Below, piece by piece: positions 9,335 to 36,699 of a stretch of 38,499 bases of DNA. Source of the DNA: Syntrophaceae bacterium (GTDB lineage: Bacteria > Desulfobacterota > Syntrophia > Syntrophales > UBA5619); NCBI GenBank assembly GCA_023249795.1, contig JAHFBU010000001.1, positions 1 through 38,499 on the forward strand, written 5' to 3'. Numbering within the stretch: the stretch's first letter is position 1; every line of letters begins with the position of its first letter. Position numbers and translations under genes: made by a program. Under the pieces are notes generated by a model that saw only the letters and a program-made list of their open reading frames with translations, made no database searches and had not been told where the DNA came from.

Positions 9335-11859
9335 TCCTCCGCCTCCGCAGGGCCGATCGCCGGAGCAAGTTCCAGCTCGTTCCCCGTCTCTTCCGCGGGA
9401 TCCTCCGTCCCCTCTCCGTTCTCCCGCTCCTCTTCCCTCTCTGCGCGGGCGACGCCCACCAGTTTTTCGTTCTCGTCAAGGTCAATCAGGCGCACCCCCT
9501 GGGTGCTCCGGTGGATGACGCGCACCTCCTCCGCACGCATGCGGATGATCCGGCCCGAGTCGCTGATCATCATGATGTCCTCACTGCCGGAGATCTGGAG
9601 GATCCCGGAAACGTCGCCCACCTTGGGGACCGTCCGGAGGTTGATCGTCCCCTTCCCTCCGCGGGATTGGAGGCGATACTCCGCAATTTCGGTCCGCTTT
9701 CCATATCCCTTTTCGGAGACAGTAAGAATCGTGTTCCCCTCGGTCGGGATTTCCATACCGATGACCCGGTCTTCGTCAGCCATCCTGATCCCCCGGACGC
9801 CTCGCGCCGTACGGCCCATGTCGCGGACGTCGTCCTCTTTGAAGCGGATCGATTTGCCCTTCCGGGTTCCGAGGAAGATGTCCTGACCGCCAAGGGTAAG
9901 CTGGACATCGATCAGCTCGTCCCCTTCATCGATTGAGATCGCAATGATCCCGCCCGCACGGGGGTTGGAGAAGGCCGAAAGCTCCGTCTTCTTGATTGTC
10001 CCCCGGCGGGTCACCATGACCACCGATTTATCCCCGGTGAACTCCCGGACCGGCAGCACCGCGGCGACCCGTTCGCCTTCGGTCAGGTTGATCAAATTGA
10101 CGATCGCCTTCCCCTTGGCGGCGCGTCCGGCCTGCGGGATCAGGTAGACCTTCAGCCAGTAGAGACGGCCCTTGCTCGTGAAGATCAGCACGTAGTGGTG
10201 GGTGTTGGCGATGAAGATGCGTTCTACGAAATCCTCCTCCTTCGTCCCCATTCCGATCTTTCCCTTGCCGCCTCGCCGCTGGCTCTTATAGAGACTGACG
10301 GCATTGCGTTTGATGTAGCCCGCATGTGAAACGGTGACCACCATGTCCTCTTCAACGATCAGGTCTTCAATGTTGATGTCCTCGGAGCTGAAGACGATCT
10401 CGGTGCGCCGGTCGTCGCCATAGCGCCCCCGGATCTCGGTGAGCTCTTCGACGATCACGTCGAGTACCTTCTGCGGGTCGTCGAGGATTCCCTGGAGCTT
10501 GTGAATCAGCGCCGAGATCTCGGCATATTCCGCGTCGATCTTCTCCCGTTCGAGACTGGTCAGGCGTTGCAGACGCATCTCCAGGATCGCCTTGGCCTGG
10601 AACTCGCTCAAGCCGAACCGGCTGCAGAGGGCGACGGAAGCCTCCGCGGGGTTCCCGGAGGCCTTGATCACGGCGATCACCTCGTCGATCCGGTCGAGGG
10701 CGATGATCAGCCCTTCGAGGATATGGGCCCGCTCCTTGGCCCGGGCGAGGTCGAAGGCTGTCCGGCGGACCACCACCTGTTTGCGAAACTCCAGGAAGCT
10801 CTGGAGAACCTCCTTCAGGTTGAACACCCGGGGCTGCACCCGGTCAATCGCAAGCATGATGATCCCGAAGGTCGATTCCATCTGGGTGTGTTTGTAGAGC
10901 TGATTCAGGACGATCGCGGAGGCCTCGTCCCGCTTCAGGTCGAGGACGACGCGGATCCCGTCGCGGTCCGACTCGTCCCGGAGGTCGGCGATCCCGCCAA
11001 TCTTCTTCTCCTTGACGAGTTCCGCGATCTTCTCGATCAGGTTCGCCTTGTTCACCTGATAGGGGAGCTCGGTGACGACGATGCTCTCCCGGTCGTTGCG
11101 CGCATTCTTCTCGATCAGCGCGCGCGCCCTCACCCGGATGATCCCGCGACCCGTCCGATAGGCGGAGAGGATTCCCTCGCGGCCGTTGATGAAGCCCGCC
11201 GTCGGGAAGTCCGGCCCCTGGATGTGGTGCATGAGTCCGTCGACCGTAATTTCGGGGTCGCGGATCATTGCGATCGTCCCGTCGATCACCTCCCGGAGGT
11301 TGTGGGGCGGAATGTTCGTCGCAACGCCGACGGCGATGCCGGCGGTGCCATTAAGGAGCAGCAGGGGGATCTTTGCCGGCAGCACGGTCGGCTCCTCCAG
11401 CGATTCGTCGTAGGTGGGTATGAAATCGACGGTGTTCTTCTCCAGATCTGCCAGCAGTTCCTCGGAGAACCTCGTCATCCGGACTTCGGTGTACCGCATC
11501 GCGGCAGGCGGGTCCCCGTCGATCGAGCCGAAGTTCCCCTGGCCGTCGACCAGCAGATAGCGCATGGAGAACTCCTGAGCCATACGGACGATCGTATCGT
11601 AGGCGGCCTGATCCCCATGGGGATGGTACTTTCCGATGATATCCCCGACGATCCTCGCCGATTTCTTGTAGGGCTTGTTCCAGCGATTACCCATTTCGTT
11701 CATGGCGAACAGCGCCCTGCGGTGAACGGGCTTCAGTCCATCCCGGACATCGGGGATGGCCCGGCCGATGATGACGCTCATGGCATAGTCCATGTAGGAC
11801 TTTTTCATTTCGTCTTCGATATTGGTCGGGATCGACTTTTCAAACAGATGTTCCATCAA
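9331..11859 (-). CDS. gyrA: DNA gyrase subunit A
   Basis: 842 aa. N-terminal [35 protein letters not shown] and the active-site region AAMRYTE. C-terminal beta-pinwheel repeats and an acidic tail. Confidence 0.97.
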
Positions 11860-12000
11860 GATACAGTTCTCCTTAACCCTGGATCATGGCAGGCCTCTGC
11901 GAGGAGAGGGCCATGGTCATCTTTCAATATCTGCTCAGCGGGGCTCTTTCCAGGGTACGGCCGAGGAAAGACACGCCACATACGAATTTTTCAGCTGCGG

Positions 12001-14484
<2,484 letters not shown>

Positions 14485-14507
14485 TCAACCTCTTTCCATT
14501 TTTAATG

Positions 14508-15623
14508 TTACAGTTTCAATGGCATGACGATACAAAAATAATTTTCATTCCCCGCCGCCCGAACGATGCCGGGCTTCATCCCCTCTCCAACCTCAAAAGC
14601 AATGATCTCTTCATCAATCACATCAATGGCATCAGAAAGATAGGTTATATTATAGCCGATGCTTCTACCCTCTCCCGTATAGGCGACATCGAGCTCATCG
14701 TCGGCCTCTCCAACATCAGGGTTGTTTGAATTCAAGATAATTTTATCCGTGGCCAGGGTCATAATCACCCCATTATACCGTTCAGACGATATGACCCCCA
14801 TCCGGCGAAGGGCATGGAGGAGTTTGTATTTATCTACTTCAACCATCACCCCTGTCTCTGCCGGGATCACACGCCGGTAATCCGGGTATTCCCCGTCAAT
14901 CAAACTGACCTTCAGTGTGGTATGGTCCGTTTTGACAATGCACATCCCCTGACGGACCCCAAGCGAAACATCCCCATGTTCATCCTCCACCAGCCGCCGG
15001 ATCTCCACGAGCCCCTTCCTTGGAATGATCACACCCTTTTCCATTTTTAAAAAATTTTTCTCGCCCGTATCCCCCTTCATCACGGAGAGACGGTGACCAT
15101 CCGTGGCCACCATCCGCAACCAGAAAGTTTCCCCCATCTCTTCCGTTTCCATGAAGACGCCGCACAGGGTCTTCCTCATCTCATCGGTCGACATCGCAAA
15201 GGCAGTTTTGCGGATCAACTCTTTCAAGAGACTGCCTTTTATTTTATAAAAAAGAATATCCTCGTTCGCCACCACCGGATAGTCATCCGCCGGGATACCG
15301 GGAATCCTGTATGTGGCCTTGTTGCAGGTCAGAATAACAATATCCCGTTCGTTTTTAGCCACATGGATTTTATCGCCCTGGATCTCCCGAACCATTTCAT
15401 GGAGCTTTCTCGCTGAGAGGGTAATCTGCCCTTCCCGGATCACCTCCGCCTCATAGTCCGCCACAATACCAATTTCACGGTCCGTTGCCACAATGGTGAC
15501 CCGGTTTGGGCCTGCCATGAGCAATAGATTACTTAGAATTGGCATCGTTGTTTTCTTCTCCACAATCCCAAGTGTCTTCTGAATTCCCGCCAGAAAAACA
15601 TCCCTTTTTATATTAAATTCCAT
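14508..15623 (-). CDS. dnaN: DNA polymerase III beta sliding clamp; alternative TTG/GTG starts at 15635/15632
   Basis: MEFNIKRDVFLAGIQKTLGIVEKKTTMPILSNLLL is a canonical DnaN N-terminus. About 371 aa with three-domain length. Only 23 nt separate its stop from the gyrB start. Confidence 0.95.
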   Translation of the reverse strand: MEFNIKRDVFLAGIQKTLGIVEKKTTMPILSNLLLMAGPNRVTIVATDREIGIVADYEAEVIREGQITLSARKLHEMVREIQGDKIHVAKNERDIVILTCNKATYRIPGIPADDYPVVANEDILFYKIKGSLLKELIRKTAFAMSTDEMRKTLCGVFMETEEMGETFWLRMVATDGHRLSVMKGDTGEKNFLKMEKGVIIPRKGLVEIRRLVEDEHGDVSLGVRQGMCIVKTDHTTLKVSLIDGEYPDYRRVIPAETGVMVEVDKYKLLHALRRMGVISSERYNGVIMTLATDKIILNSNNPDVGEADDELDVAYTGEGRSIGYNITYLSDAIDVIDEEIIAFEVGEGMKPGIVRAAGNENYFCIVMPLKL

Positions 15624-15799
15624 AACTTTCACCAATCCTTTCTGCTGAATTAACAGGTTCTGTAATTTAAATAATTTCTTCTTTTAAAATAACCAGTAAT
15701 AGTAATAGTACTTGTGAATGATGTTCATAACCCGCTTTGTTTTTAATTTCGTGACCTATTTTCTCCCGCCTGCTGTGGACAGAGTCACATGAAAAAGTC
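15624..15799. other. Candidate oriC core (AT-rich unwinding region plus DnaA-box-like 9-mers) in the dnaA-dnaN spacer
   Basis: An AT-rich tract runs about 15651-15712 and includes the trinucleotide-periodic AGTAATAGTAATAGTA (15695-15710). TGTGAATGA lies at 15713-15721 and TGTGGACAG at 15774-15782. A further TGTGGAGAA sits at 15808-15816 inside the dnaA 3' end. All three 9-mers share one orientation. Confidence 0.45.
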
Positions 15800-17155
15800 T
15801 CACCGTTTGTGGAGAAGAGCCTCCGTGATTTCCTCAACGGTATCCCTGAGGGTCTTATTGGCTTCTATCATCTTTTTGATTTTATTGTGGGCATAGATCA
15901 CCGTTGAGTGATCCCTGCCGCCGATTTTGTCACCGATATCAGGGAAGGAGAAGCTGGTCATCTCACGTGCAAGAAACATAGCAAACTGTCGTGCCAAAAC
16001 AATATTCTTATTTTTTTTCTGAGATTTGATTTCAGAAATCTTGATGTTGAAATGAGCGCCCACTGCCTTCACAATTTCCTCAATCGTGATCTCCTTCGTT
16101 TCCTCCTTTTTGAGAAGTTGTCTCATCACATTCCTGACCAGATCCAGGTCGATCTGGCGCTCGGTCAGGGAGGAGTATGCGGCGATCCGAACCAGATATC
16201 CTTCCAACTCCCGGATATTGGACTCCGCCTGTGATGCAAGGTAAAGGGCGACGTTTCCCGGCAGGGAGATATTGTTCTCCTGAGCCTTCTTCTCCAAGAT
16301 GGCAACCTTCGTTTCAATCTCAGGTGGCTGGATGTCCGCAATCAGCCCCCATTCGAACCGAGATCGCAATCGCCCCTCCAGATTTGGAATGTCTTTTGGA
16401 AATTTGTCGCTGGTTACAACGATCTGTTTGCCGGCGTCATGAAGGGTATTGAAGGTATGAAAAAATTCCTCCTGGGTTCGCTCCTTTCCGGCGATAAACT
16501 GGATGTCGTCAATGAGAAGACAATCGATATTCCTGAACTTCTCTCTGAATTTTGGCATCTTGTCATAGCGGATCGAATTGATCAACTCGTTCATAAAGAC
16601 TTCCGCCGAGACATAGACCACGTTCAGGTCCGGAAAAAGTTTCAAAGTCTTCAGGCCGATGGCATTTAGAAGGTGGGTCTTTCCCAGTCCCACGCCGCCG
16701 TATATGAACAAGGGATTGTAATTTTTCGCCGGCTGCTCGGCAACCGCCGCCGAGGCGGCATGGGCGAATTGGTTGCAGGAGCCCACGACGAAGCGTTCAA
16801 AAGAGTAGTTTACGTTCAGAGAAGAGTGAATCCGTGCCCGGGAAGGCCTTTTTACGACGGTCTTGGCTGAGACCGTCGCCTCGCCTCGTCCTGCAATATC
16901 CTGATCGTGCGGACTGTCTTGTTCTATGGCCAGTTCAATTTGAAATGGAACTCCGGTCGCCAACTTCATCGAATCCCGGATCATGGAAAGATAATTTTCC
17001 GATAGCCAGTCGCGGAAAAAGCGGTTGGGAACGCTGAGATGGACTTGATCCCCCTCCATGTGGATGATGCGGACAGGACGGATCCATGTATCGAAGTTCT
17101 GCTGGCTGACCGTTTCTTTAATGATTTTAGCCGTTTTTTCCCAAAGTATTTCCAA
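15800..17155 (-). CDS. dnaA: Chromosomal replication initiator DnaA (TTG start)
   Basis: 451 aa. N-terminal EILWEKTAKIIKETVSQQNFDTWIRPV, AAA+ Walker A GGVGLGKTHL, Walker B LLIDDIQF, and C-terminal DNA-binding helix region (IGGRDHSTVIYAHNKI). An in-frame stop lies 2 codons upstream (17161-17159), so the TTG at 17155 is the only start that retains the conserved N-terminus. Confidence 0.97.
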   Translation of the reverse strand: MEILWEKTAKIIKETVSQQNFDTWIRPVRIIHMEGDQVHLSVPNRFFRDWLSENYLSMIRDSMKLATGVPFQIELAIEQDSPHDQDIAGRGEATVSAKTVVKRPSRARIHSSLNVNYSFERFVVGSCNQFAHAASAAVAEQPAKNYNPLFIYGGVGLGKTHLLNAIGLKTLKLFPDLNVVYVSAEVFMNELINSIRYDKMPKFREKFRNIDCLLIDDIQFIAGKERTQEEFFHTFNTLHDAGKQIVVTSDKFPKDIPNLEGRLRSRFEWGLIADIQPPEIETKVAILEKKAQENNISLPGNVALYLASQAESNIRELEGYLVRIAAYSSLTERQIDLDLVRNVMRQLLKKEETKEITIEEIVKAVGAHFNIKISEIKSQKKNKNIVLARQFAMFLAREMTSFSFPDIGDKIGGRDHSTVIYAHNKIKKMIEANKTLRDTVEEITEALLHKR

Positions 17156-26030: not shown

Positions 26031-27083
26031 TTAGCGCTTCCGGTTTTCCGGACGTAGGGCGCGGACGGCGGCGCCGGCCTGCCACAGCTCCGTGTTCCGC
26101 ATCGTTTCCAACTCCGCGTTGAGCTTCTGGCGGTAGTCGGGGGCGTTGTTCACCGACAGGACGATCCGCGTCTCCTCGCCGGAACGGACACTCTCGTAGA
26201 GCTTTTCAAAGACCGGTGCGACGGCGTCGCGGAAGGGTCCCTTCCAGTCCAGCGCTCCTCGCTGGGCGGTTGTGCTGCAGTTGGCATACATCCAGTCCAT
26301 CCCGTTCTCCGCGACGAGACGGATGAGGCTCTGCGTCAGCTCCTCCACCGTTTCATTGAAGGCCTCGCTCGGGCTGTGGCCGTTTTTCCTGAGCACGTTG
26401 TACTGCGCCTCCATGACGCCGGCCAGGGCGCCCATCAGGATTCCGCGCTCGCCCGTGAGGTCGCTGAACACCTCCTTCTCGAAAGTAGTCGGGAAGAGGT
26501 AGCCCGAACCGATGGCCATGCCGAGAGCAATGGTCTTCTCGGTCGCCTTCCCTGATGCGTCCTGGAAGATTGCGTAACTGGAATTGAGTCCGCTCCCGTC
26601 GAGAAAGTTGGTGCGCAGCGAGCGTCCCGAACCCTTGGGGGCGACGAGGACGACGTCGATGTCCGGAGGCGGAATCACGCCGGTCTGCTCCCGGTAGGTG
26701 ATCGAGAAGCCGTGTGAAAAATAGAGGGTCTTTCCCTTCGTGAGGTAGGGTTTGATCGTCGGCCACATCTGTGTTTGGCCGGCATCGGAAAGCAGGTATT
26801 CGATAATCGTTCCCCGCTTCGCCGCCTCTTCGATGGGGAAGAGGGTCTCCCCGGGAACGAAGCCGTCCTCGACGGCCTTCTTCCACGTGGCGCCTCCTTC
26901 GCGCTGTCCGACGATCACATGGATGCCGTTGTCGCGCAGGTTGAGCGCCTGCCCCGGTCCCTGCACGCCATAGCCGAGCACCGCAACTGTCTCGCCCTTC
27001 AGCACTTCCTGCGCCCGGCTCAATGGAAATTCATCGGACGTCACCACATCTTCCCACACCCCGCCGAAATTGATTTTTGCCAT
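26031..27083 (-). CDS. ilvC: Ketol-acid reductoisomerase
   Basis: 350 aa from MAKINFGG. A perfect RBS AAGGAG lies 5 nt upstream of the ATG at 27083; the track ORF runs to 27161. Contains the NADP Rossmann motif AVLGYGVQGPGQALNL and KARI C-terminal knotted-domain motifs. Confidence 0.95.
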   Translation of the reverse strand: MAKINFGGVWEDVVTSDEFPLSRAQEVLKGETVAVLGYGVQGPGQALNLRDNGIHVIVGQREGGATWKKAVEDGFVPGETLFPIEEAAKRGTIIEYLLSDAGQTQMWPTIKPYLTKGKTLYFSHGFSITYREQTGVIPPPDIDVVLVAPKGSGRSLRTNFLDGSGLNSSYAIFQDASGKATEKTIALGMAIGSGYLFPTTFEKEVFSDLTGERGILMGALAGVMEAQYNVLRKNGHSPSEAFNETVEELTQSLIRLVAENGMDWMYANCSTTAQRGALDWKGPFRDAVAPVFEKLYESVRSGEETRIVLSVNNAPDYRQKLNAELETMRNTELWQAGAAVRALRPENRKR

Positions 27084-27170
27084 GATATTCTCCTTTGTTG
27101 ATATGAACGGGGCCTGTGTGCATCGGCCCCGGGAAAAGGGGTCGCCCGACCCCGTCTTCATTCATTCCGA

Positions 27171-27193
27171 GAACACCTTGCTGCAAGGTGTTC
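27171..27193. repeat. Palindrome copy 2: ACACCTTGC-N-GCAAGGTGT core, in the ilvN-ilvC spacer
   Basis: GAACACCTTGCTGCAAGGTGTTC. Confidence 0.7.
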
Positions 27194-27214
27194 CCGCTGT
27201 ACGCGACTGGAATC

Positions 27215-27709
27215 CTATCCCTCCCGCTTCTGGCGGAAGACGGCTATCGCGCCGGTTCTATTCATCTCCTCCACGCCGAAAGGTTCAAAATATTTCAGGA
27301 TCGCCGCCGTCTTGTCCTTGTTTGCCGTGATCTCCAGAATCAGGTGGTCCTCGCTCATCGTGACTACCCGGCAGCCGAAGAGGTCGACCGCCCGGAGGAC
27401 CTCCCGGCGGTTCTCCACCGTGAGCAGGAGGCTGACGAGCATCAGTTCCCGCTGCACTGAAGGGGCGCCGGTGAAATCCGTGACGGAGATGATGTCCACG
27501 AGCTTGTCGAGCTGCTTTTTGATCTTCTCCGTAAAGTCGCTCTCCGCCCGGCTGGTCAGCGTAATCCGGGAGACTTCCGGGTTGATCGTCTCGGCGACGC
27601 AGAGACTTCGGATATTGTAACCGCGACTGCTGAAGACGCCGGCAATCCGCGAGAGAACCCCCGGCTGGTTGTTCACGAGCATCGAGATGGTGCGTTCCTC
27701 AATAGCCAT
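27215..27709 (-). CDS. ilvN: Acetolactate synthase small (regulatory) subunit
   Basis: 164 aa from MAIEERTISMLVNNQPGVLSRIAGVFSSRGYNI (ACT domain). The track ORF's N-terminal extension to 27772 is not supported. Confidence 0.93.
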   Translation of the reverse strand: MAIEERTISMLVNNQPGVLSRIAGVFSSRGYNIRSLCVAETINPEVSRITLTSRAESDFTEKIKKQLDKLVDIISVTDFTGAPSVQRELMLVSLLLTVENRREVLRAVDLFGCRVVTMSEDHLILEITANKDKTAAILKYFEPFGVEEMNRTGAIAVFRQKREG

Positions 27710-27869
27710 ATTCCTTATTCCTTTCTTTTCCCTTCGCTTCGATGGGTCCAAGGACTTCGCCGAAGGGCGCATCGGAGATTTCTCGGTTCACCGTGCTGCC
27801 GCGGAGGAGGAGAACGGCCGGAAATATACGGCACCCGGGTGAAGGGCATGGACCACTCATTCTACCATT

Positions 27870-29531
27870 CTATTTTCCACAGATCATCTCCACATTGGAA
27901 CGGCCCGGAGGGATGATCGGATAGACATAGGCGTTCGGATCGACCATGGCCTCCAGCATATAAGGGCCCGGGGCGGAAGCCATCCGGGCAATCGCCTCCT
28001 CCGGGTCTTCGTCCATGGCAACCCGCTCGGCCTGGATGCCGAACCCTTTTGCCACGGCCGTCAGATCGACCGTGTCTCCCAGGAAGCTGGTTGTAAAACG
28101 CGCTTCGTAGAAGAGGTCCTGCATCTGCCGGATCATTCCCAAGTGGCCGTTGTTGATCACGACGATCTTGATCGGCAGGCGGTAGGTGCTGATCGTCGCC
28201 AGTTCCTGGATGTTCATGTGAAACCCGCCGTCGCCGCAGATGGCGACCACGTCCCGGTCCGGGGCGCCCACCCTGGCGCCGATGGCGGCCGGAAGGGAGA
28301 AGCCCATCGTCCCCATGCCGCCGCTCGTAAGCAAGCTGCGGGGAGAATGGCTCTGCCAGGTGCGGACCGTCCAGATCTGGTTGAGCCCCACGTCCGCGAC
28401 GGCGATCGTCTCCCGTGGCATGGCGGCCTGGATCTTTCGGATCAGGGTCCCCGCCTGGCCGCACCCGCCATCAATGAGTTTTTCTCCCAGGGTTTGGCGG
28501 TCCGTTCGTATTCGTTCCTGCCATGCCTTCCGTTCCCTGGAAACGATCAGCGGGATCAGCGCCGCAAGCGCCTCCCGGATATCCCCCACAAGGGGGAGAT
28601 CCACCCTGATGTTCTTGCCGATGGAGGTGGGATCGATGTCGATCTGGGCGACGGTGGCAAGCGGGGCGAACTCCTCGATGCGGGAGGTACTCCGCTCTGT
28701 GAAGCGGGTCCCCAGGGCGAGAATAAAGTCGGCCTGGTGGACCGTCCGGTTGGCCAATTCGTTTCCGTGCGTGCCGATGAATCCGAGGTTGAACCCGTTC
28801 GTTGTCGCGACCGAGCCGATTCCCATCATCGTGGTTACGAACGGAACCTGCGCCGTCTGCACGAACTCGGTCGCGCGGTCGCAGGCGTTGCCCAGCTTGA
28901 CACCGCCGCCGATGATGATCACCGGCCGCTCGCTCCGGCTCAGCGCCTGCGCGATCCGTTCGATCTGCTCCGGATTCCCGGCGGGTTTCGATGGCGGGGC
29001 GGCCGGTCTCCTCTTCGGCTGGTCGCCGCAGGGGGCGCTCAGGATGTCTCTCGGGATGTCTACGAGGACGGGACCCGTCCGTCCGGAGCCGGCGAGCTCG
29101 AAGGCCTGCCGGAAAGACGAGGCAATTTGGTTCACATCGCGCACCATGAAGCTGTGCTTGGTGATGGGCATCGTGATCCCGATGATGTCCGTCTCCTGAA
29201 AGGCGTCACGGCCCCAGAGGTCGCTGTTGACCTGGGCGGTGATGGCGACCATGGGGGTCGAATCCATGTAGGCGGTGGCGATTCCGGTGACCATGTTGGT
29301 GGCGCCGGGACCCGATGTGGAGAGGCAGACCCCCACCTTGCCCGTCGCGCGGGCATAGCCGTCGGCGGCATGGGCTGCCCCCTGCTCGTGCCGCATCAGG
29401 TAGTGCCGGATGCGGCTGCCGGTCAGCCGGTCGTTGAGCGGCAGGGTGTTGGCGCCGGGGTAGCCGAAAATCGCCTCCACCCCTTCCTCCAACAGGGTTT
29501 TCACAACAATGTCCGCACCGATGGTATCCAT
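27870..29531 (-). CDS. ilvB: Acetolactate synthase large (catalytic) subunit, ThDP-dependent
   Basis: 553 aa with IFGYPGANTLPLND, RHEQGAAHAADGYARATG and the ThDP motif GDGGFHMNIQELATI..NNGHLGM. Confidence 0.95.
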   Translation of the reverse strand: MDTIGADIVVKTLLEEGVEAIFGYPGANTLPLNDRLTGSRIRHYLMRHEQGAAHAADGYARATGKVGVCLSTSGPGATNMVTGIATAYMDSTPMVAITAQVNSDLWGRDAFQETDIIGITMPITKHSFMVRDVNQIASSFRQAFELAGSGRTGPVLVDIPRDILSAPCGDQPKRRPAAPPSKPAGNPEQIERIAQALSRSERPVIIIGGGVKLGNACDRATEFVQTAQVPFVTTMMGIGSVATTNGFNLGFIGTHGNELANRTVHQADFILALGTRFTERSTSRIEEFAPLATVAQIDIDPTSIGKNIRVDLPLVGDIREALAALIPLIVSRERKAWQERIRTDRQTLGEKLIDGGCGQAGTLIRKIQAAMPRETIAVADVGLNQIWTVRTWQSHSPRSLLTSGGMGTMGFSLPAAIGARVGAPDRDVVAICGDGGFHMNIQELATISTYRLPIKIVVINNGHLGMIRQMQDLFYEARFTTSFLGDTVDLTAVAKGFGIQAERVAMDEDPEEAIARMASAPGPYMLEAMVDPNAYVYPIIPPGRSNVEMICGK

Positions 29532-29549
29532 GACCTGTTCCTTTCCGTA

Positions 29550-29586
29550 AATAAAAAAGCCGTCGATTCTTCCGAACCGCGGCTTT
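29550..29586 (-). terminator. Second intrinsic terminator of the ilv leader (T2)
   Basis: The minus-strand RNA reads AAAGCCGCGGUUC-GGAA-GAAUCG(A)CGGCUUU, 13 bp with one bulged A, followed by UUUAUUU. It ends about 20 nt before the ilvB RBS. Confidence 0.55.
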
Positions 29587-29629
29587 ATAAAAAAAGAAAA
29601 GCCGCGGACCTTTCGGGGTCTGCGGCTTT
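29587..29629 (-). terminator. First intrinsic terminator of the ilv leader (attenuator T1)
   Basis: The minus-strand RNA reads AAAGCCGCAGACC-CCGAAA-GGUCCGCGGCUUU, 12 of 13 bp, followed by UCUUUUUUUAU. It begins 16 nt after the leader-peptide stop. Confidence 0.6.
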
Positions 29630-29645
29630 CGTCCTTAACATTTCA

Positions 29646-29735
29646 TCAAAGACGCCGAGCAGCAGCCCCTGTGTGTACGAGTACGACGACGGGAATGACG
29701 AGAAGCAAGCTGTTCGACAATGTTGTTTGTTTCAT
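29646..29735 (-). CDS. ilv operon leader peptide (29 aa, Leu/Val/Ile-rich)
   Basis: Hand translation of the minus strand gives ATG AAA CAA ACA ACA TTG TCG AAC AGC TTG CTT CTC GTC ATT CCC GTC GTC GTA CTC GTA CAC ACA GGG GCT GCT GCT CGG CGT CTT TGA. This reads MKQTTLSNSLLLVIPVVVLVHTGAAARRL. RBS GGAAGGG lies 7 nt upstream. The ORF is below the length cut-off of the ORF track. Confidence 0.6.
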   Translation of the reverse strand: MKQTTLSNSLLLVIPVVVLVHTGAAARRL

Positions 29736-29768
29736 CAATTAACCCTTCCGTTCCGATGGCTGGCCCGG

Positions 29769-29797
29769 ACCCTACCGGAACGAAAAACATTTGTCAA
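29769..29797 (-). promoter_or_regulatory. Candidate sigma70 promoter of the ilv leader and ilvBNC operon
   Basis: The minus strand reads a perfect TTGACA (29797-29792), a 17-nt spacer, then TAGGGT (29774-29769), about 35 nt upstream of the leader ATG. Confidence 0.5.
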
Positions 29798-29807
29798 GGC
29801 GATTTTT

Positions 29808-29835
29808 GGGGCGCGGTGTCGAAGGACCGCGCCCC
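29808..29835 (-). terminator. 10-bp GC hairpin just 3' of the giant gene (possible terminator or 3' stabiliser)
   Basis: GGGGCGCGGT (29808-29817) pairs with ACCGCGCCCC (29826-29835), starting 16 nt after the stop. On the minus strand it is followed by an A-run rather than a U-run, so it is atypical. Confidence 0.4.
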
Positions 29836-29851
29836 AGTCTGAGGTTATGCA

Positions 29852-32800
29852 TTACTCACCCTTCACGACGACGCCCGCCGCCGTGCCGGAGAAGGAACCG
29901 GTGCCGGGGAGGGATTGGCCGTGAGCGGCGGTGTTGTTCACGCCCGGGGTGATCGTCCCCGCCGCCGCGCCCGGCATCGACGAAATGTGGATCGCCGTCG
30001 GCGCCGCGGGCAGTCTTGCCGTGTCGGTGGTGCTTCGGGCCAGCGTCCCGGGGGTGTCTGTTTGGAGATTGTGAAGGGCGGCGCCCCAGCCGTTGTTTGT
30101 CGTGTCCCACTGCTTCACTACGAATGTCTGTGTCAACCCCGTGAGGTTGCCGGAGCTACTGAGCGTCACCGTGGTGCCGACCGACGGATCCGCGGCGTAG
30201 CTTCCATAAACATTGTTTGTAGCCCAGATCCGCGGACCCTCCTCGTTCTGGAAACGGAAGAACTTGATGTTGTCCATGTTCACGTAAAGGTTGCCGTTGT
30301 TGCCCCGGAGGTTGGCCATCCCGACGTCGAAGGCGGGGATCTTCGTGGCTCGCTCGAAATTGGCCCTTTCGCTGTCGGCCATCCCGGACTGCTTGTCGAT
30401 AAAGTTTTCAGTTCTCATGTAACCGCCCTGGGAAATGGCGGTCCAGGTGAGCGGTGTCGTGGTGGGATCAAAGATCCCCTTGACGCCGCCGCCCATGACC
30501 ACCGTGTAGGATTCGGGGATGGACTCGGCGGTCATTTTTTCTCCCCACCTGGCCTCGGCTCCCGCCACGGTGCCCGAGGAGACGCCGTTGGCCGAAGCAC
30601 CCATACTGAAGTTCAGATACTCGCTGCCATAACCGCCAGCCCAAGGCGACGGAAGGGGTATGTTTTCTTCGACCGACGAGATGTTGCTACGGAAATCAAG
30701 GGGATCCCCCCCGATTAGGGAAGGGTAGCCCCCGAGAGATCCCGTACCGTAGCCTCCCGCGGATGTGTCATCGAAACCCCCGAATACCCTGTGCCAGATT
30801 CCCCATGATTCACCGGGGAAATGTTGGATGGTTGTCTGGGACGTCTGCGAATTGTTTGTGTATGCCAAGGTGTTTATGGTGGATGACGATAGATAGCCTG
30901 ACATCTGGTAGGCATTGATGTCTCCCTGCGCTTTCCAGGAACCGATCTCGGGGGCGTAGGTGCCGGCGATGTCATCACTGTAGAGGATGCCCCCGTAGCC
31001 GTAGCCCTGCTGGTAAAGGGCCATGATGCCGCCGGAAACGACGTTGGCGGAATCGGCGGCGACTCCGGCGAATCCCTCATAGTATCCCGTGAACGTCGAG
31101 GTTACGGGAATGTGGCTGAAAATTGCGCTCGCGGCGACAAAGGGCACGGTCGGGAGAGATCCCACCTCTTTGTTGCCCAGGAGGCCGAGGAACTTGATCG
31201 GGCTCGTCCCGGATGCGAAAAGGTTTAAGCTCAGGCCGCCCATGATGCCGCTGAAATAATACTGATCCTGTTGAAGGTTCACAGACTCTCCGTAACCGGA
31301 AACCACGGTCTTGAATGTGGAGCCGTCGATGGCGCTGCTGAAGGCGAGCATTTGGCCCGAGAAGGTCCCCACCCCCTCGCCGATCCACCCTCCGCTGAAG
31401 CCTCCGTCGCCGTCCGACTCTTCGTTGTACAAGCCATAGAAGGGGCCGCTGAAGGTGCCGATCTGGTCCATGGTCATGTAGTCGCCGGAAGTGACGCCCG
31501 TAATCTCGCCGTTCCCTTCCCCGATGGACGTCCAGACGGGGCTGTTTACCTTGCCGATCCAGAAACCGCTTTCGGTGGAACCGCCGCCGGTCTTGATGGC
31601 TTTTCCGTCGAAGGGATGAGAAGAACCTGTCCCAGAACCATGGTCTTGATATCCGTCCTCGATCCAGAAAGCGAAGACCCCCCACGGAAGATTGAAGGTT
31701 GCTTCCCGCTCACTGTCGTAGGCGCTGAAGTAGAAGGCGTCGATCCCGCCCAGGCCCCGGATCAGGCTTCCGGAATCGTTTCCGTATCCCGCCCTGATGT
31801 CATATTCCGTTTCCTGAAGGGTGAATGCGCTGAGGGTGGTGCGCGTCTCCATCGGCGTAGCCGTCAGGGTGCCGTCGAGGGACCAGTAACCGTATTCTAT
31901 ACCGTTCTCCACCGGGTAGGGATAAAACCCGCCCGTCAGGCCCCCCTCGCTGCCGCCCGGGGTGAAGGTGGACAGAAGTCCCGCCTTCCCGTTCTTGACA
32001 TAGATGGCCGCCAGCGCGCCGTTCGCCGTCCGTTCCCAGACGCCGTTCTCGGGATCGACGTGAGAGAGGAGCCTTCCCGCGACGGCGCCGAAGAAATCGC
32101 CGTCCTGGAAAAGCGGCTCATTCCAGAGAGAATTCGCCGGATCCGGGCGGCTGCCGACCGGTGAACTCAACAGGAGGGCATTCGGCGCGGAGCTTTCAAA
32201 GTAATCGGCGTAATCCATCCCGTATGCTCCCGCCACCTTGATCGCCGCGGGGGCGTTCCACGGGGCGGTCCAGGCGCCGATGAGGCCCCACTCGTCGCCG
32301 ACGTGCTCCTCGTAGCCGTTGTCGTTGATGTACAGGCAATTATTTATGGCATAGCCCCAGTATCCGCCGAAGGCCGTCGGGGCCAGTTCGATGGTCCCTG
32401 CGCCGCCGCTGTTGCCGCCGTAATAGGGATCGCTCTCCCATGACTCGAAATTGATGTAGCCCATGGATCCGGGGAGCCCTGCTTCGAAGTTGCCCGTTCC
32501 CTTGAACTGGTTGTATCCGGGTGTGATGTAGAGGAGGTTCCGTCCCGACAGGCGCAGGCGGGTCGGATCGGTCTCCGTCCCCACCCCTGTGTTATACCCG
32601 GTGACATTGCCTACGATGAAGTAAGGATAGGGATCATCCCCTTCCTGGACCGCGTAGTTGTAACCGGCGTGCCCGTACTTGGCCGCCCATGTCGTCGGGG
32701 CATTTCCCGCCGCGCTGTAGTAGAACCCGTTATCGTCATTGATCCTGTTCACGGCCCAGGCGGAAAGGAATTTTGACCCGTCGGACGAGAGGTAGTTCTG

Positions 32801-35800
32801 GCTGGCGCCGGCGCCGTCCAGGATGCTTCCGGCGGAAACGACGCCGGACCAGATATAAGCGGGAAGGCCGGGCCCTCCCACCAGCACCGCCGAAACGCCG
32901 GGGACGTCCAGGCCCATCTGTTCGAAAAGAGCGGGCGAAACGCCGGTCAATCCCGTTGTGGCGGTCGTAAGAGCGGGCGTTCGGGTCAGGCCGCCGCTTG
33001 CGGTCAGTCTCCCATTGGCGTCATTGTAAGTCCCGTCGAGATAACCGAGAAAAAGCCCGACGCCCGTCGCATCGGCATAGAGGCCACTCAGGGCGCCCTC
33101 CCAGGAGCCGGGGATACTGGTGATCAGTCCCGTAACGTTGCTGCCGTTCTGCATTCGGCCGACAAGGGTTCCGATCTCCTGTTGCGGGGCAAGGTAGGGG
33201 GTTTCCTGTCCCGGTGTCTGGTCGTACTCCAGCGTCAGGGTGATGGAGCCGATGTTGGTCGTGCTGTTCAGGTTCTCCAGAAGCCTCCCCGCGGCGGTGC
33301 TTTCCCCGGGCGTCGCCGGATATGAATAGGGGAAATAGACATTGATCCGCGGTGCCTCCGTTGAAATTTCCACCACCCCCGCCGCCGTGCCGGAGAAGGA
33401 ACCGGTGCCGGGAAGACCCGTGTTGTTTACGCCCGGGGTGATCGAACCCGCCGCCAGGCCGGTCATTGCCGAGATCGGTATCGTGGCGGTGGCACCCTCG
33501 GGCAGTGTCCGGGTTTCAGTCCGTGTCAGGATTCCTCCCGTGTCGGTGGCGCCGTTGTTGTAGATGGAGGCGCCCCAGCCATTGTTTGGCGTGTCCCACT
33601 GCTCGACCTCAAAGGTATGGTTCAGGCCGACGAGGTTGCCGGAACTGGTGAGCGTCACGGTGGTACCGACCGTCGGATCGGTGGTGTAGCTTCCGTAGAC
33701 ATTGTTTGTTGCCCAGAGCTGTGGGTTTGCCTCGTTCTGGAAGCGGAAGAACTTGATGTTGTCCATACCCACATAAAGGTTGCCGTTGTTGCCGCGGAGG
33801 TTGGCCATTCCGACATCGAAGGCGGGGATCTTCAGCGCGCGCTCGAAATCGGCCCGCCCGCTGTCGGTCATTTCGGACAGCATGCCGAGGAAGGTTTCCG
33901 ACCTCATGCCGCCGCCCTGGGAGATGGCGGTCCAGGCCAGAGGCGTGGAATTGGGATCGAATAGGGCCTCGACGCTGCCGCCCATGACCAACGTGAAGGA
34001 TTCGGGGGTGGACTCCGAGGGCATCAGTTGATTCCATACGCTGCGGACCCCCACCACGGTTCCCGAGGAGACGCCGTTTACCGGCGCGGCCATGTTGTAG
34101 AGCTGGTACTGGATGCCGTAACTGCTGTCCCATTCCTGGGTCAGTAGAGGGACGTTGTTCTCGATCGATAACCAGTTGCGCGGGGTGTCGCCTTCATAGG
34201 TTCCCCCGGAGACGTTTTGCCAGATTCCCCAGGAGGTCTCGTCGTGGAAGTTCAGGACGACGGTTTGGGATGTCCGCAGATCGACAGTCCCGCCGGAGAT
34301 CGCCTTTACGGGCACTTCACCGGCGGCGTAGGATTGCGAGTATTCCCATCTGTGAATGGATGACGATAGATCGCCCGGCATCCGGTAGGCATTGAGGTTT
34401 CCTTCGGCTTTCCAGGAACCGATTTCGGTGTCGTAGGTACCGGCGACGTCATCGCTCCAGAGGATGCCCCCATCGCCGCCATTGCCCTGTTGGTAAAGGG
34501 CCAGAACCTCGCCCGAAACGGCCTTGGCGGAATCGGTGGCCATGCGGAGGAGGCCTTGATAGGATCCGGCGAATGACGAAGTCACGGGGATGTGGCTGGT
34601 GATTTCGGCCGTTGAAAGAGAAGCCATCCCCAACGCGGAATCCAGAATCACTGCGGGAGGGTCGATGCCGAGGAAACGGATCGGACTGGTTCCCGTTGTG
34701 AAGATGTCCTGGCTTAAGCCTCCCATGATACCGCTGAAGGTGTCGAAAATGGAACCGGATCCGACATACGTCAATCCTTGAATCGTGCTACTGAAGGCGA
34801 GCGTCTGGCCCGAGAAGGTTCCCACCCCTTCGCCGATCCAGCCCCCGCCGTAGCCCCCCGCCCCTTCGTTATACAGACCATAGAAGAGGCCGCTGAACGC
34901 GCCGAACTGGTCATTGTTTATATAGTCGCCGGACAGGGTACCCGTTATCTCGCCATTCCCGGAAGCGGTGGACGTCCAGACGGGGTTGTTCACCTTGCCG
35001 GCCAGGAAGCCGTCTTCGGTGGAGCCGCCTGCGATCTTGATGGCCTTGCCGTTCAAAGCCGTAGGCGTTCCCTCGAAAGAGGCGGCGGAATCATTTCCAA
35101 TCGAGAAACCGAAGATCCCCCAGGGAAGGTCGTGGTGCCCTTCAAGCATGCTGTCGTAGGCGTTGAAGAAGGCGGCGCCGAATCCGCCTTCCCCCCGGAT
35201 CCGGCTTCCGGAGGCGTTTCCGTACGCCGCTATGATGCCGAGTTCCCTTTCCTGAAGCATAAAATCGCTGAGGGTGGTGCGCGTCTCCATCGGCGTTGCC
35301 TTCAGGATGCCGTCAAGGTGCCATGTACCGCCATCCGGGCCGAGAGAAAACCCGCCGGTCAGGCCGCCCACGGCGCTGCCCGGGGCATAGGTTGTGAGCC
35401 AACCGGCCTTTCCGTCCTTCAGATAGAGGGCTACCGCCCCCCCCTTTGCAGAGCGGCTCCAGACCGTGCCGGAGGTCCCCGTGTAGGGGCCGATGATTCC
35501 CGCGGCTCCGCCGAAGAAATCCCCATCCGCGAAAACGGAATCATTCCACGGCATGTCCGCCGGCTTCGGGCGGCTGCCGATCGGGGAACCCAACAGGAAG
35601 CCCGGTGCGGAGGCGCCATTGTCGCTTCCGGAGGAATCCATCCGGAACTCTCCCGCAGCCTTGATGACGGCTGGGGCGGACCACGGGGCGGAGCGGGCGC
35701 CGATCAGGCCCCACTCGTCCGCGACATGTTCCTCGTAGCCGTTGTTGTTCATGAACAGGCAGGCTTCTCCATTCGTGCTCATGTCGTAGCCCCAGTATCC

Positions 35801-36655
35801 AATGGTCGTCAGCGGGGGTTCTTCCACCGGCGTCACCCCTGTCCCGGTCAGTTCCGGGGGAATAACAGGCGGCGTGGGCGGTGGGGGAGGTGTGGGCGGT
35901 TCCCCGGGACCGGGGCCGATTACGGGAGCGGTTAAAAGCCCGCCGCTTGCCTGCGTCGGCTCCGTGGGCGTCAGCACCAGAATCATCGGGACCTCCGGGG
36001 CGGCAGAGGCGCCCGCGTCTTTCTTGTCCTTGTCTCCTTTATCCCCGACGGGGGCCGTGTCCGACACATGCTTATCCACTTCGATGGAGGTCGCGGGCTG
36101 AATTACCGGCGGCTGGTTGTTCCCAGGGATCAGGAGGGCCTGACCGGGAGTGACGGTTTTCACATCCTGAGGCATGTTGCGGTTATACCCGTAGATGGTT
36201 CCCTCCTTCGGGACAAAGCCGCTCACCCCATCGTGGAAGAAGGAGAAGAAGTTGGTTCCGCGCACGCCGCAGACGGACGTGGGGGTGTGAACTTCATACC
36301 TTGCGTTTTTGGCCAACGAAGAAACGATATTCTGGGTCTTCCCCCTGAACAGATTCAGGATGGTGGTTTTGCCCTCCCCGGACGGGTAATCTGTGATCCG
36401 GACGCGGGTTCCTTCGGCCAGCCGCAGGATATTCCCATCGAGGAAGGTCACTTCGGCCCTGGCCCTGCTTTTGGATCGTAGGACATCGCCGGCGTTGACC
36501 GGCTCGCCGAGGCCGGCCGGTCGGACCGTGTCGCCGGCGGTGATATCAACGTTGCCCTCAATGTGGGTGATCTTTCCCACCGGGGCGGCGGAGGCGGTCA
36601 GAGGCAGCAACAGCAGGACCGTGATGATCCAAAATAATTTCGTGAAGTTCTTCAT
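29852..36655 (-). CDS. Giant secreted FecR-domain protein with two about 800-aa paralogous modules of unknown function
   Basis: About 2267 aa from MKNFTKLFWIITVLLLLPLTASA|AP. RBS GAGGGGG lies 6 nt upstream of the ATG at 36655; the track ORF starts at 36670. FecR-domain signature GKITHIEGNVDI..AGDVLRSKSRARAEVTFLDGNILRLAEGTRVRI...VHTPTSVCGVRGTNFF. Pro-rich linker GPGPGEPPTPPPPPTPPVIPPE. The rest is Gly/Ser/Thr/Asn/Tyr/Trp-rich. Confidence 0.85.
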   Translation of the reverse strand: MKNFTKLFWIITVLLLLPLTASAAPVGKITHIEGNVDITAGDTVRPAGLGEPVNAGDVLRSKSRARAEVTFLDGNILRLAEGTRVRITDYPSGEGKTTILNLFRGKTQNIVSSLAKNARYEVHTPTSVCGVRGTNFFSFFHDGVSGFVPKEGTIYGYNRNMPQDVKTVTPGQALLIPGNNQPPVIQPATSIEVDKHVSDTAPVGDKGDKDKKDAGASAAPEVPMILVLTPTEPTQASGGLLTAPVIGPGPGEPPTPPPPPTPPVIPPELTGTGVTPVEEPPLTTIGYWGYDMSTNGEACLFMNNNGYEEHVADEWGLIGARSAPWSAPAVIKAAGEFRMDSSGSDNGASAPGFLLGSPIGSRPKPADMPWNDSVFADGDFFGGAAGIIGPYTGTSGTVWSRSAKGGAVALYLKDGKAGWLTTYAPGSAVGGLTGGFSLGPDGGTWHLDGILKATPMETRTTLSDFMLQERELGIIAAYGNASGSRIRGEGGFGAAFFNAYDSMLEGHHDLPWGIFGFSIGNDSAASFEGTPTALNGKAIKIAGGSTEDGFLAGKVNNPVWTSTASGNGEITGTLSGDYINNDQFGAFSGLFYGLYNEGAGGYGGGWIGEGVGTFSGQTLAFSSTIQGLTYVGSGSIFDTFSGIMGGLSQDIFTTGTSPIRFLGIDPPAVILDSALGMASLSTAEITSHIPVTSSFAGSYQGLLRMATDSAKAVSGEVLALYQQGNGGDGGILWSDDVAGTYDTEIGSWKAEGNLNAYRMPGDLSSSIHRWEYSQSYAAGEVPVKAISGGTVDLRTSQTVVLNFHDETSWGIWQNVSGGTYEGDTPRNWLSIENNVPLLTQEWDSSYGIQYQLYNMAAPVNGVSSGTVVGVRSVWNQLMPSESTPESFTLVMGGSVEALFDPNSTPLAWTAISQGGGMRSETFLGMLSEMTDSGRADFERALKIPAFDVGMANLRGNNGNLYVGMDNIKFFRFQNEANPQLWATNNVYGSYTTDPTVGTTVTLTSSGNLVGLNHTFEVEQWDTPNNGWGASIYNNGATDTGGILTRTETRTLPEGATATIPISAMTGLAAGSITPGVNNTGLPGTGSFSGTAAGVVEISTEAPRINVYFPYSYPATPGESTAAGRLLENLNSTTNIGSITLTLEYDQTPGQETPYLAPQQEIGTLVGRMQNGSNVTGLITSIPGSWEGALSGLYADATGVGLFLGYLDGTYNDANGRLTASGGLTRTPALTTATTGLTGVSPALFEQMGLDVPGVSAVLVGGPGLPAYIWSGVVSAGSILDGAGASQNYLSSDGSKFLSAWAVNRINDDNGFYYSAAGNAPTTWAAKYGHAGYNYAVQEGDDPYPYFIVGNVTGYNTGVGTETDPTRLRLSGRNLLYITPGYNQFKGTGNFEAGLPGSMGYINFESWESDPYYGGNSGGAGTIELAPTAFGGYWGYAINNCLYINDNGYEEHVGDEWGLIGAWTAPWNAPAAIKVAGAYGMDYADYFESSAPNALLLSSPVGSRPDPANSLWNEPLFQDGDFFGAVAGRLLSHVDPENGVWERTANGALAAIYVKNGKAGLLSTFTPGGSEGGLTGGFYPYPVENGIEYGYWSLDGTLTATPMETRTTLSAFTLQETEYDIRAGYGNDSGSLIRGLGGIDAFYFSAYDSEREATFNLPWGVFAFWIEDGYQDHGSGTGSSHPFDGKAIKTGGGSTESGFWIGKVNSPVWTSIGEGNGEITGVTSGDYMTMDQIGTFSGPFYGLYNEESDGDGGFSGGWIGEGVGTFSGQMLAFSSAIDGSTFKTVVSGYGESVNLQQDQYYFSGIMGGLSLNLFASGTSPIKFLGLLGNKEVGSLPTVPFVAASAIFSHIPVTSTFTGYYEGFAGVAADSANVVSGGIMALYQQGYGYGGILYSDDIAGTYAPEIGSWKAQGDINAYQMSGYLSSSTINTLAYTNNSQTSQTTIQHFPGESWGIWHRVFGGFDDTSAGGYGTGSLGGYPSLIGGDPLDFRSNISSVEENIPLPSPWAGGYGSEYLNFSMGASANGVSSGTVAGAEARWGEKMTAESIPESYTVVMGGGVKGIFDPTTTPLTWTAISQGGYMRTENFIDKQSGMADSERANFERATKIPAFDVGMANLRGNNGNLYVNMDNIKFFRFQNEEGPRIWATNNVYGSYAADPSVGTTVTLSSSGNLTGLTQTFVVKQWDTTNNGWGAALHNLQTDTPGTLARSTTDTARLPAAPTAIHISSMPGAAAGTITPGVNNTAAHGQSLPGTGSFSGTAAGVVVKGE
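29855..32365 (-). repeat. Module B of the intragenic duplication (from GYWGYA.. to the C-terminal PGTGSFSGTAAGVV)
   Basis: Collinear with module A through many conserved blocks: NGYEEHVxDEWGLIGA, TATPMETRTTLS, GGWIGEGVGTFSGQ, KIPAFDVGMANLRGNNGNLYV, WATNNVYGSY, PGTGSFSGTAAGVV. Confidence 0.85.
33371..35800 (-). repeat. Module A of the intragenic duplication (from GYWGYD.. to PGTGSFSGTAAGVV)
   Basis: Same conserved blocks as module B. The 35-nt stretch 33378-33412 is identical to 29874-29908. Confidence 0.85.
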
Positions 36656-36699
36656 ATGATACCCCCTCATTAAGAAAAGGAACGATGATCGGTTTTCCC

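Follow-up and report, generated by a model that had tools for sequence, protein, structure and literature searches.

The 38,499-nucleotide (nt) stretch of Syntrophaceae bacterium contig JAHFBU010000001.1 analyzed here (GenBank assembly GCA_023249795.1; hereafter the window) carries on its minus strand ilvB, ilvN and ilvC, assigned by the NCBIfam equivalog models TIGR00118, TIGR00119 and TIGR00465, all above their cut-offs. Upstream of ilvB lie a candidate promoter, a short open reading frame (ORF) rich in codons for branched-chain amino acids (BCAAs), and two successive terminator hairpins, which we call T1 and T2 (Table 1). From the sequences and folding models described below, we consider it probable that this leader is a ribosome-mediated leader-peptide attenuator of ilvBNC, which would sense charged Val-, Leu- and Ile-tRNA, mainly that of Val, and relay its decision to both terminators through a chain of five pairing segments.

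The TTGACA hexamer of the candidate promoter is invariant in ~40 relatives, where an A-rich run precedes it and a TA-initial hexamer (TAGGGT, TATAAA, TAGAAG and others) follows after 17–18 nt. A promoter scan tool left the TTGACA/TAGGGT promoter of the window unflagged because TAGGGT fits TATAAT at only three of six positions. Further downstream, GGAAGG or AAAGG is kept in relatives at the position of the leader Shine-Dalgarno sequence. The ORF that follows contains a striking codon cluster: ten of the eleven codons from Leu10 to Val20 specify Leu, Val or Ile, and no other 11-codon stretch in the six frames of the 38.5-kilobase (kb) window has at least ten. Across 71 leaders the core of the peptide is 40% Val, 20% Leu and 4% Ile (64% together), while Phe and Met each make up less than 1%, a composition that argues against a generic membrane peptide. 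GUA accounts for 74% of the Val codons in these leaders compared to 6% in the genes of the window, where it is the rarest Val codon, and the final Val codon of the run is GUA in 68 of 70 aligned sequences. Leader peptides classically feature rare cognate codons. Five representative leader peptides matched no Pfam and no NCBIfam family at E ≤ 10, leader-peptide models included.

T1 begins 16 nt after the leader stop codon. A simple terminator scan of the window lists both T1 and T2, and the minimum-energy fold of the 234-nt leader holds them together (z = -3.0). Two alternative hairpins, AT1 and AT2, compete for the same arms. In AT2, CCGCGGCUUU of the T1 3' arm (29607-29598) is perfectly complementary to AAAGCCGCGG of the T2 5' arm (29586-29577). 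In AT1, GGGGCUGC and GCAGACCCC pair with one bulged A; they form only the outer end of a 55-nt antiterminator hairpin, with the stop codon close to the tip of that hairpin. Folded alone, T1, T2, AT1 and AT2 reach z scores of -4.1 to -4.9 against dinucleotide shuffles, and the pattern GCCGC...GCGGCTTT occurs a single time in the window.

A sequence-only reading of this DNA had proposed much of this architecture. The TTGACA-N17-TAGGGT promoter, the ribosome-binding site with its 29-codon ORF and Leu/Val/Ile cluster, and the two terminators ahead of the ilvB ribosome-binding site all lie where it placed them, and its claim that the T1 3' arm and T2 5' arm form a helix with which T1 and T2 are mutually exclusive is borne out by their perfect pairing; folding predicts the terminator hairpins and both alternative helices. 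Its proposal that the end of the leader pairs with the T1 5' arm through one bulge was right about the pairing but understated it, since the hairpin is far longer and continuous through the stop codon. It had also called the element unannotated, in keeping with the absence of any Rfam, Pfam or NCBIfam match: Rfam release 15 gave no match at gathering score in the whole window, and a permissive Rfam scan of 29500-29860 returned only noise (12–18 bits).

Table 1. Features of the ilvBNC leader and operon in the window, with the conserved cores of the five pairing segments among 70 sequences
Feature	Position	Strand	Remark
-35 hexamer TTGACA	29797-29792	minus	A-rich AAAAAT at 29807-29802 precedes
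-10-like hexamer TAGGGT	29774-29769	minus	17-nt spacer from -35
Leader Shine-Dalgarno GGAAGGG	29749-29743	minus	7 nt before ATG
Leader ORF MKQTTLSNSLLLVIPVVVLVHTGAAARRL	29735-29646	minus	29 codons + UGA; ends 114 nt before ilvB
Regulatory codon run Leu10-Val20 (LLLVIPVVVLV)	29708-29676	minus	presumed ribosome stalling site
Segment 1, leader 3' end GGGGCUGCUGCUCGG, codons Gly23-Arg27	29669-29655	minus	5' strand of AT1
Inner stop-codon hairpin CGUCUUUGAU / GUUAAGGACG	29654-29630	minus	in both states; top of AT1
AT1 antiterminator hairpin, segment 1 + T1 5' arm	29669-29615	minus	55 nt; -27.7 kcal/mol; z = -4.7
T1 hairpin, segments 2 + 3	29630-29597	minus	-20.3 kcal/mol; then UUUUCUUUUUUU
T1 U-run UUUUCUUUUUUU	29600-29589	minus	first Us also pair in AT2
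AT2, T1 3' arm CCGCGGCUUU + T2 5' arm AAAGCCGCGG	29607-29577	minus	-17.1 kcal/mol; z = -4.1
T2 hairpin, segments 4 + 5	29586-29556	minus	-17.9 kcal/mol; then U6
T2 U-run UUUUUU	29558-29553	minus	
ilvB Shine-Dalgarno GGAAAGGA	29546-29539	minus	outside T2
ilvB	29531-27870	minus	ATG at 29531; NCBIfam model above cut-off
ilvN	27772-27215	minus	NCBIfam model above cut-off
ilvC	27161-26031	minus	NCBIfam model above cut-off
Presumed regulated operon ilvBNC	26031-29531	minus	
Segment 1 conserved core GGGG(C/A)(U/C)GC(U/C)GCUCG			last ORF codons
Segment 2 conserved core (G/A)AGCCGC(G/A)G.CCCC			T1 5' arm
Segment 3 conserved core			T1 3' arm ending GCGGCUUUUUU
Segment 4 conserved core AAAAGCCGC			A-run + T2 5' arm
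Segment 5 conserved core GCGGCUUUUUU			T2 3' arm

An IlvB search of species-representative genomes recovered 80 loci: 74 from Syntrophales (Syntrophaceae, Smithellaceae and unclassified metagenome-assembled genomes, or MAGs, of the phylum Thermodesulfobacteriota), with IlvB 59–88% identical to that of the window, and six outgroup loci (Bacillota, an archaeon and one unclassified bacterium), with IlvB 41–44% identical. Three of the 74 lack upstream sequence; each of the 71 that could be assessed carries a small ORF with a Val/Leu run upstream of ilvB (in locus L020 by hand inspection). The ORF ends 100–185 nt before ilvB in relatives, or up to 283 nt where an insertion follows T2, and its peptides (...SLLLVLGVVVLVRTGAAARRL, ...IVAVVVVSVLRGTAARFL, ...VLVVVLTGTAARP and similar) have a variable N-terminus, a Val-rich core and a conserved C-terminus (GAAARRL or GTAARFL). 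T1 and T2 follow the ORF in all assessable Syntrophales loci but L019, from an uncultured Syntrophus sp., which keeps the leader and T1 and lacks T2. Neither leader ORF nor hairpins were found in the six outgroup loci, and the T1-T2 tandem occurs nowhere else within the 80 loci. The sequence-only reading had staked itself on the small ORF and the arms persisting in related genomes; the ORF is present and BCAA-rich in all 71 loci, and T1, T2, AT1 and AT2 are conserved with it.

Some loci depart from this plan in detail. In L020, an S. aciditrophicus-like MAG, the T2 arms read AACCGC and GCGGUU, a compensated change from G-C to A-U that costs AT2 one pair. Insertions of 150–300 nt lie between T2 and ilvB in L020, L059, L069 and L070; that of L020 (2150-2460) contains two copies of a ~35-nt repeat, CCCCGAATG(C/T)TTCTATCGGG(G/A)ATATGGTTTT, reminiscent of a small mobile repeat, and the attenuator upstream of it is intact.

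A scan of metagenome contigs with a loose pattern returned 120 matches, among them 28 further copies of the element, all directly upstream of an ilvB. The remaining 92 were chance matches, including a recurrent human-gut sequence, GAGCCGCTTATTCTTTTCCATAAGAGTAAGCGGCTTTTTTGCG... (e.g. L085, L093, L097), that follows a gene whose product ends in ...RQGRYTDCIDELIFKVANAPVKKMKIEYV; it resembles an ordinary terminator and was rejected as a copy of the attenuator. Nine of the 28 copies precede a different, more typical acetolactate synthase paralogue (type-B ilvB), ~40% identical to the IlvB of the window. In these loci (L092, L094, L102, L106, L118, L141, L142, L153 and L166) the leader, T1 and T2 stand directly upstream of the type-B gene, indicating that the attenuator was retained though the first gene of the operon differs. 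The L118 paralogue heads an ilvB-ilvN-ilvC-ilvD operon whose IlvC is 72–74% identical to Syntrophales IlvC. Elsewhere the two types occur together: 36 loci (L021-L075) have a second acetolactate synthase large-subunit paralogue ~0.8 kb downstream of the first ilvB, and the order in those Syntrophales operons is ilvB type A, ilvN, ilvB type B (for example L060, 4227-6657). No type-B ilvB was found in the window, where ilvC comes directly after ilvB-ilvN.

Alignment and folding of 70 distinct sequences revealed a leader held nearly constant at the RNA level. Folded singly, every sequence forms the same four hairpins, AT1, T1, AT2 and T2. The pairing cores hardly vary (GCNGC of the leader segment in 67–70 of the 70; in the terminator arms, GCCGC in all 70 and GCGGC in 68–70, or 69–70 for the T1 arm); the five core pairs of AT2 are invariant, and the outer five pairs of T2 and the A-run are invariant or nearly so, while the inner stem and loop of T2 drift. 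Six Us are present in the U-runs of T1 and T2 in at least 60 of the 70 sequences, followed by (G/A)UU or AUU. Even the four-fold-degenerate third positions of segment 1 are frozen (Gly GGG in 70/70, Ala GCU in 67/70), indicating that selection acts on the RNA there. In the AT1 + AT2 register 87.4% of alignment cells pair (88% for AT1 alone and 86% for AT2 alone), compared to 40–55% with the partners slid by 1–3 columns; in the T1 + T2 register the figure is 91.4%, against 31–57% in the slid controls.

The few substitutions in the arms bear on both registers at once. An A at column 103 faces U at column 53 in 5/5 sequences and U at column 124 in 4/5, the exception being the window itself, which has an A.C mismatch in T1. 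A change from A to G at column 149 keeps a wobble with U130 in 13/13, and at column 178 it is compensated in five and wobbles in eight. Stems with a single partner behave differently. In a swap test on clade representatives, double-centred to allow for differences in intrinsic stability between halves, cognate halves beat swapped halves both in the stop-codon hairpin, whose sequence is clade-specific (0 of 5000 random re-pairings were as good), and in the inner stem of T2 (2–3 of 5000); these two stems drift and covary. As a control, terminators downstream of ilvC were clear in ~6 of 20 sequences (19 loci and the window) and had at least three unrelated stem sequences, a weak indication that ordinary terminators do not keep their sequence in this group.

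These features suggest how the leader may work. It combines a Shine-Dalgarno sequence and ORF, a BCAA codon cluster, intrinsic terminators and an alternative helix that, in computed folding, depends on the ribosome footprint; and all 70 sequences have at least five segments with two exclusive registers (1:2 + 3:4 versus 2:3 + 4:5), the arrangement of a his-type relay. The proposed chain comprises the ORF end (segment 1), the T1 5' arm (segment 2), the T1 3' arm with its U-run (segment 3), the A-run with the T2 5' arm (segment 4) and the T2 3' arm with its U-run (segment 5), each of which could pair with either neighbor. We infer a transcription start ~27 nt before the leader ORF (near 29762), ribosome stalling, termination at each U-run and a response to BCAAs, in the following way. 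With BCAAs plentiful, a ribosome at the UGA would cover or unwind segment 1 and the stop-codon hairpin; with segment 1 blocked, segments 2 and 3 would pair as T1 and polymerase would terminate at the first U-run, and a polymerase escaping T1 would meet T2, since segment 4 would be free for segment 5. With charged tRNA scarce, a ribosome would stall within Leu10-Val20, rich in the rare GUA, leaving segment 1 free to zip onto segment 2 atop the pre-formed stop-codon hairpin as AT1; the freed segment 3 would capture segment 4 once it is made, forming AT2, so that neither terminator would form and ilvBNC would be transcribed.

Local energies place the antiterminator and terminator registers nearly level. 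The AT1 state has a median of -29.8 kcal/mol compared to -27.6 kcal/mol for the T1 state (AT1 more stable in 51/70), with a median direct-path barrier of 13.6 kcal/mol between them, and AT2 a median of -15.4 kcal/mol compared to -15.2 kcal/mol for T2 (AT2 more stable in 39/70). A simulated ribosome, introduced as a 28-nt footprint mask, shifts this balance: with the mask at the stop codon, folding gave AT1 in 0/70 and T1 in 70/70, and with the mask in the Val run AT1 was the first structure formed in 55/70. In the minimum-energy fold of the window, segment 1 pairs with codons 7-12, a possible protector helix analogous to 1:2 of trp; no conserved protector helix upstream of segment 1 emerged among the relatives, whose folds pair this region inconsistently.

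Several observations weigh against this interpretation. Folding of the full, unmasked leader puts T1 + T2 at the energy minimum in 47/70 sequences, and in 45/70 even with the mask in the Val run; the direct-path barrier from AT2 to T2 is modest (median 8.3 kcal/mol). The terminators are thus the equilibrium ground state in most sequences, and read-through would depend on kinetic trapping, or on the order in which helices form as the RNA is made. In E. coli, the trp attenuator is likewise kinetic, its terminator being more stable than its antiterminator. The register-shifting cascade put forward in the sequence-only reading stands insofar as its helices are conserved and a mask at the stop codon removes AT1 throughout; it needs amending in that antitermination must be kinetic and that the his leader is a precedent. 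The same reading named covariation of the arms as a check, and here the outcome is mixed: inner stems covary and the few arm changes keep both partners, but arm covariation is sparse, because the arms hardly vary. Where every arm must serve two partners, near-invariance is what one would expect, and sparse covariation has been remarked for other attenuators too (PMC1262725). The -10 hexamer TAGGGT is a weak match, although TTGACA and its spacing are kept in relatives, which supports the promoter. The similar-looking ilvB leader of Streptomyces coelicolor, when its codons were mutated, did not show classical attenuator behavior (PMC1262725). Finally, complementarity between the T1 3' arm and the T2 5' arm is automatic if T2 is a copy of T1; only its long-term preservation argues for function.

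This last point invites the explanation that attenuation happens at T1 only and that T2 is an independent, unregulated or leaky duplicate that lowers basal expression, with the T1-3'/T2-5' helix idle. Hairpins that share a stem sequence necessarily match each other across their junction, AT2 and T2 differ little in equilibrium energy, with a low barrier separating them, and the loss of T2 in L019 and its change in L020 show that it is not indispensable in its usual form. Against this, the outer five pairs of T2 and the A-run have stayed (nearly) invariant across genomes whose IlvB proteins are 59–88% identical, while the inner stem and loop drifted, such substitutions as are seen preserve the pairing to either partner, and an unregulated terminator before an essential biosynthetic operon would cap induction; we regard this explanation as quite improbable. 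The converse, a his-type attenuator in which only T2 terminates and T1 is a middle relay helix like his C:D, with its U-run kept for AT2 pairing, is unlikely, though less so. The five-segment logic is the same as in the his leader, where the last hairpin alone terminates (PMC10989985), and in most sequences AT2 also takes in the first four Us behind T1, so that their conservation is in itself no proof of a terminator role. T1, however, looks like an intrinsic terminator in every respect (a GC-rich stem of 12–13 base pairs, -18 to -27 kcal/mol, six Us then (G/A)UU, and a tail like that of T2), whereas the his C:D helix has no U-run; and in L019, with leader and T1 and no T2, T1 must suffice. 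Because of this canonical form and the T2-less L019, the sequences favor T1 as a real terminator over a mere relay.

A further explanation takes the ORF for the gene of a functional hydrophobic micro-protein, the hairpins for ordinary terminators of that gene and the adjacency to ilvB for incidental; it seems hardly credible to us. The peptide is indeed hydrophobic, ~29 residues long and conserved at its C-terminus. Yet this conservation reaches four-fold-degenerate sites and matches the RNA pairing, the N-terminus is variable, and the hydrophobic residues are nearly all Val and Leu, with little Ile and next to no Phe or Met. Moreover, the ORF invariably stands next to ilvB on its upstream side, with a conserved promoter before the ORF and none between the two.

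If the two-terminator attenuator is accepted, it could also act as two checkpoints, the same ribosome being read twice by polymerase, an idea that we offer tentatively and judge somewhat less probable than its absence. A brief pause in the Val run might let polymerase past T1; a ribosome reaching the stop codon within the ~45 nt (~1 s) of polymerase travel to the second U-run would then melt AT1, and the late T1 would pull segment 3 from AT2 so that T2 terminates, leaving only sustained stalling to pass both. Were this so, the termination efficiencies would multiply, giving a lower leak and a wider dynamic range, and transient pauses would be filtered out.

The surroundings of the leader are as follows. 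At the ilvB Shine-Dalgarno position, GAAAGGAG is kept in close relatives. Directly upstream of the leader promoter, on the minus strand, is an ORF of 2272 amino acids (29852-36670) in which Pfam recognizes nothing beyond an FecR domain at the N-terminus. A GC-rich hairpin stands at the end of this ORF (29801-29839, GGGGCGCGGU...ACCGCGCCCC), followed by AAAAAU and no U-run, and this A-run also serves as the A-rich stretch conserved ahead of the -35 hexamer. Further along the minus strand, dnaA, dnaN, gyrB and gyrA lie consecutively at 9331-17155 (by Pfam), which places the window next to the region of the chromosomal replication origin.

Together, these analyses document putative leader-peptide attenuation of BCAA synthesis across the whole order Syntrophales, syntrophic anaerobes of the phylum Thermodesulfobacteriota in which gene regulation is little characterized. 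Annotation of the small ORF and its RNA is now feasible in over 100 genomes and contigs, where they would show at which point the ilv transcription unit truly begins. Should both terminators function, the leader is a natural means of widening the dynamic range of an attenuator, or of filtering in time, that needs no second sensor, and this one-sensor, two-terminator design could be copied in synthetic biology. The mechanism itself is ordinary, though previously uncatalogued in this lineage, and the two-terminator relay is unusual and strongly conserved: an elegant variation on textbook attenuation rather than a new regulatory principle.

Among known systems, leader-peptide attenuation of enterobacterial ilv operons is established (Kolter & Yanofsky, 1982, cited in PMC10989985). 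The leaders of enterobacterial ilvBN (ivbL) and ilvGMEDA (ilvL) resemble that of Syntrophales in having a Val/Leu(/Ile)-rich peptide and an intrinsic terminator before an acetolactate synthase operon, but have a single terminator; Syntrophales belong to another phylum, Thermodesulfobacteriota, and their peptides match no Pfam or NCBIfam model. In the literature searched we found no paper on an ilvB attenuator of Syntrophus or deltaproteobacteria. The comparative study of Vitreschak et al. from 2004 is said not to cover this group. The ilvB-ilvN-ilvC order recurs in actinobacteria (Corynebacterium, with a three-hairpin leader or the ilvB-II upstream ORF; Mycobacterium; Streptomyces), in which an Ile/Val/Leu-rich ORF and a terminator lie upstream (PMC1262725, PMC11857589, PMC10272879); the mechanism of the Streptomyces ilvB leader is disputed (PMC1262725). 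By contrast with the Syntrophales leader, the ORF there overlaps the terminator, and the proposed model is one of three hairpins and one terminator; no Rfam family matches the leader in the window.

Two successive termination decisions before one operon have other precedents. Tandem riboswitches consist of two sensors and two expression platforms. Salmonella mgtCBR has tandem attenuators with two leader ORFs (PMC3641672). In both, each terminator has its own sensor, whereas the Syntrophales element has a single leader ORF: the arm cores of T1 and T2 are ~22 nt apart and the gap is filled by the U-run and A-run, leaving no room for a second sensor, and in our model base pairing makes the second termination decision follow from the first. 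Tandem terminators within one 5' leader are also found in the rimP-leader of some Gammaproteobacteria, for which a second terminator, in some species only, and a potential antiterminator are described, and no leader peptide (PMC2965389). One sensor relayed by pairing to two terminators was not found described for natural attenuators in the literature searched.

The his attenuator of E. coli and Salmonella (hisL) shares with the Syntrophales element a single leader ORF and a register shift that, started by the ribosome, is relayed via a middle helix to the last hairpin. Johnston et al. reportedly set out the his leader relay in 1980. Its helices A:B, C:D and E:F alternate with B:C and D:E (PMC10989985). 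When we folded the E. coli his leader, C:D was followed by UGGUGCAUG, with no U-run, leaving E:F as the sole terminator; in the Syntrophales leader the middle helix, T1, carries U6-7 in at least 60 of 70 sequences, which would give two termination points. The regulatory codons are His there and Val, Leu and Ile here, and the Syntrophales element has no sequence similarity to the his leader; the window gave no match to Rfam His_leader. Thus, the attenuation principle and the relay are known from other bacteria, and what is unusual in Syntrophales is a middle hairpin with the complete make-up of a terminator.

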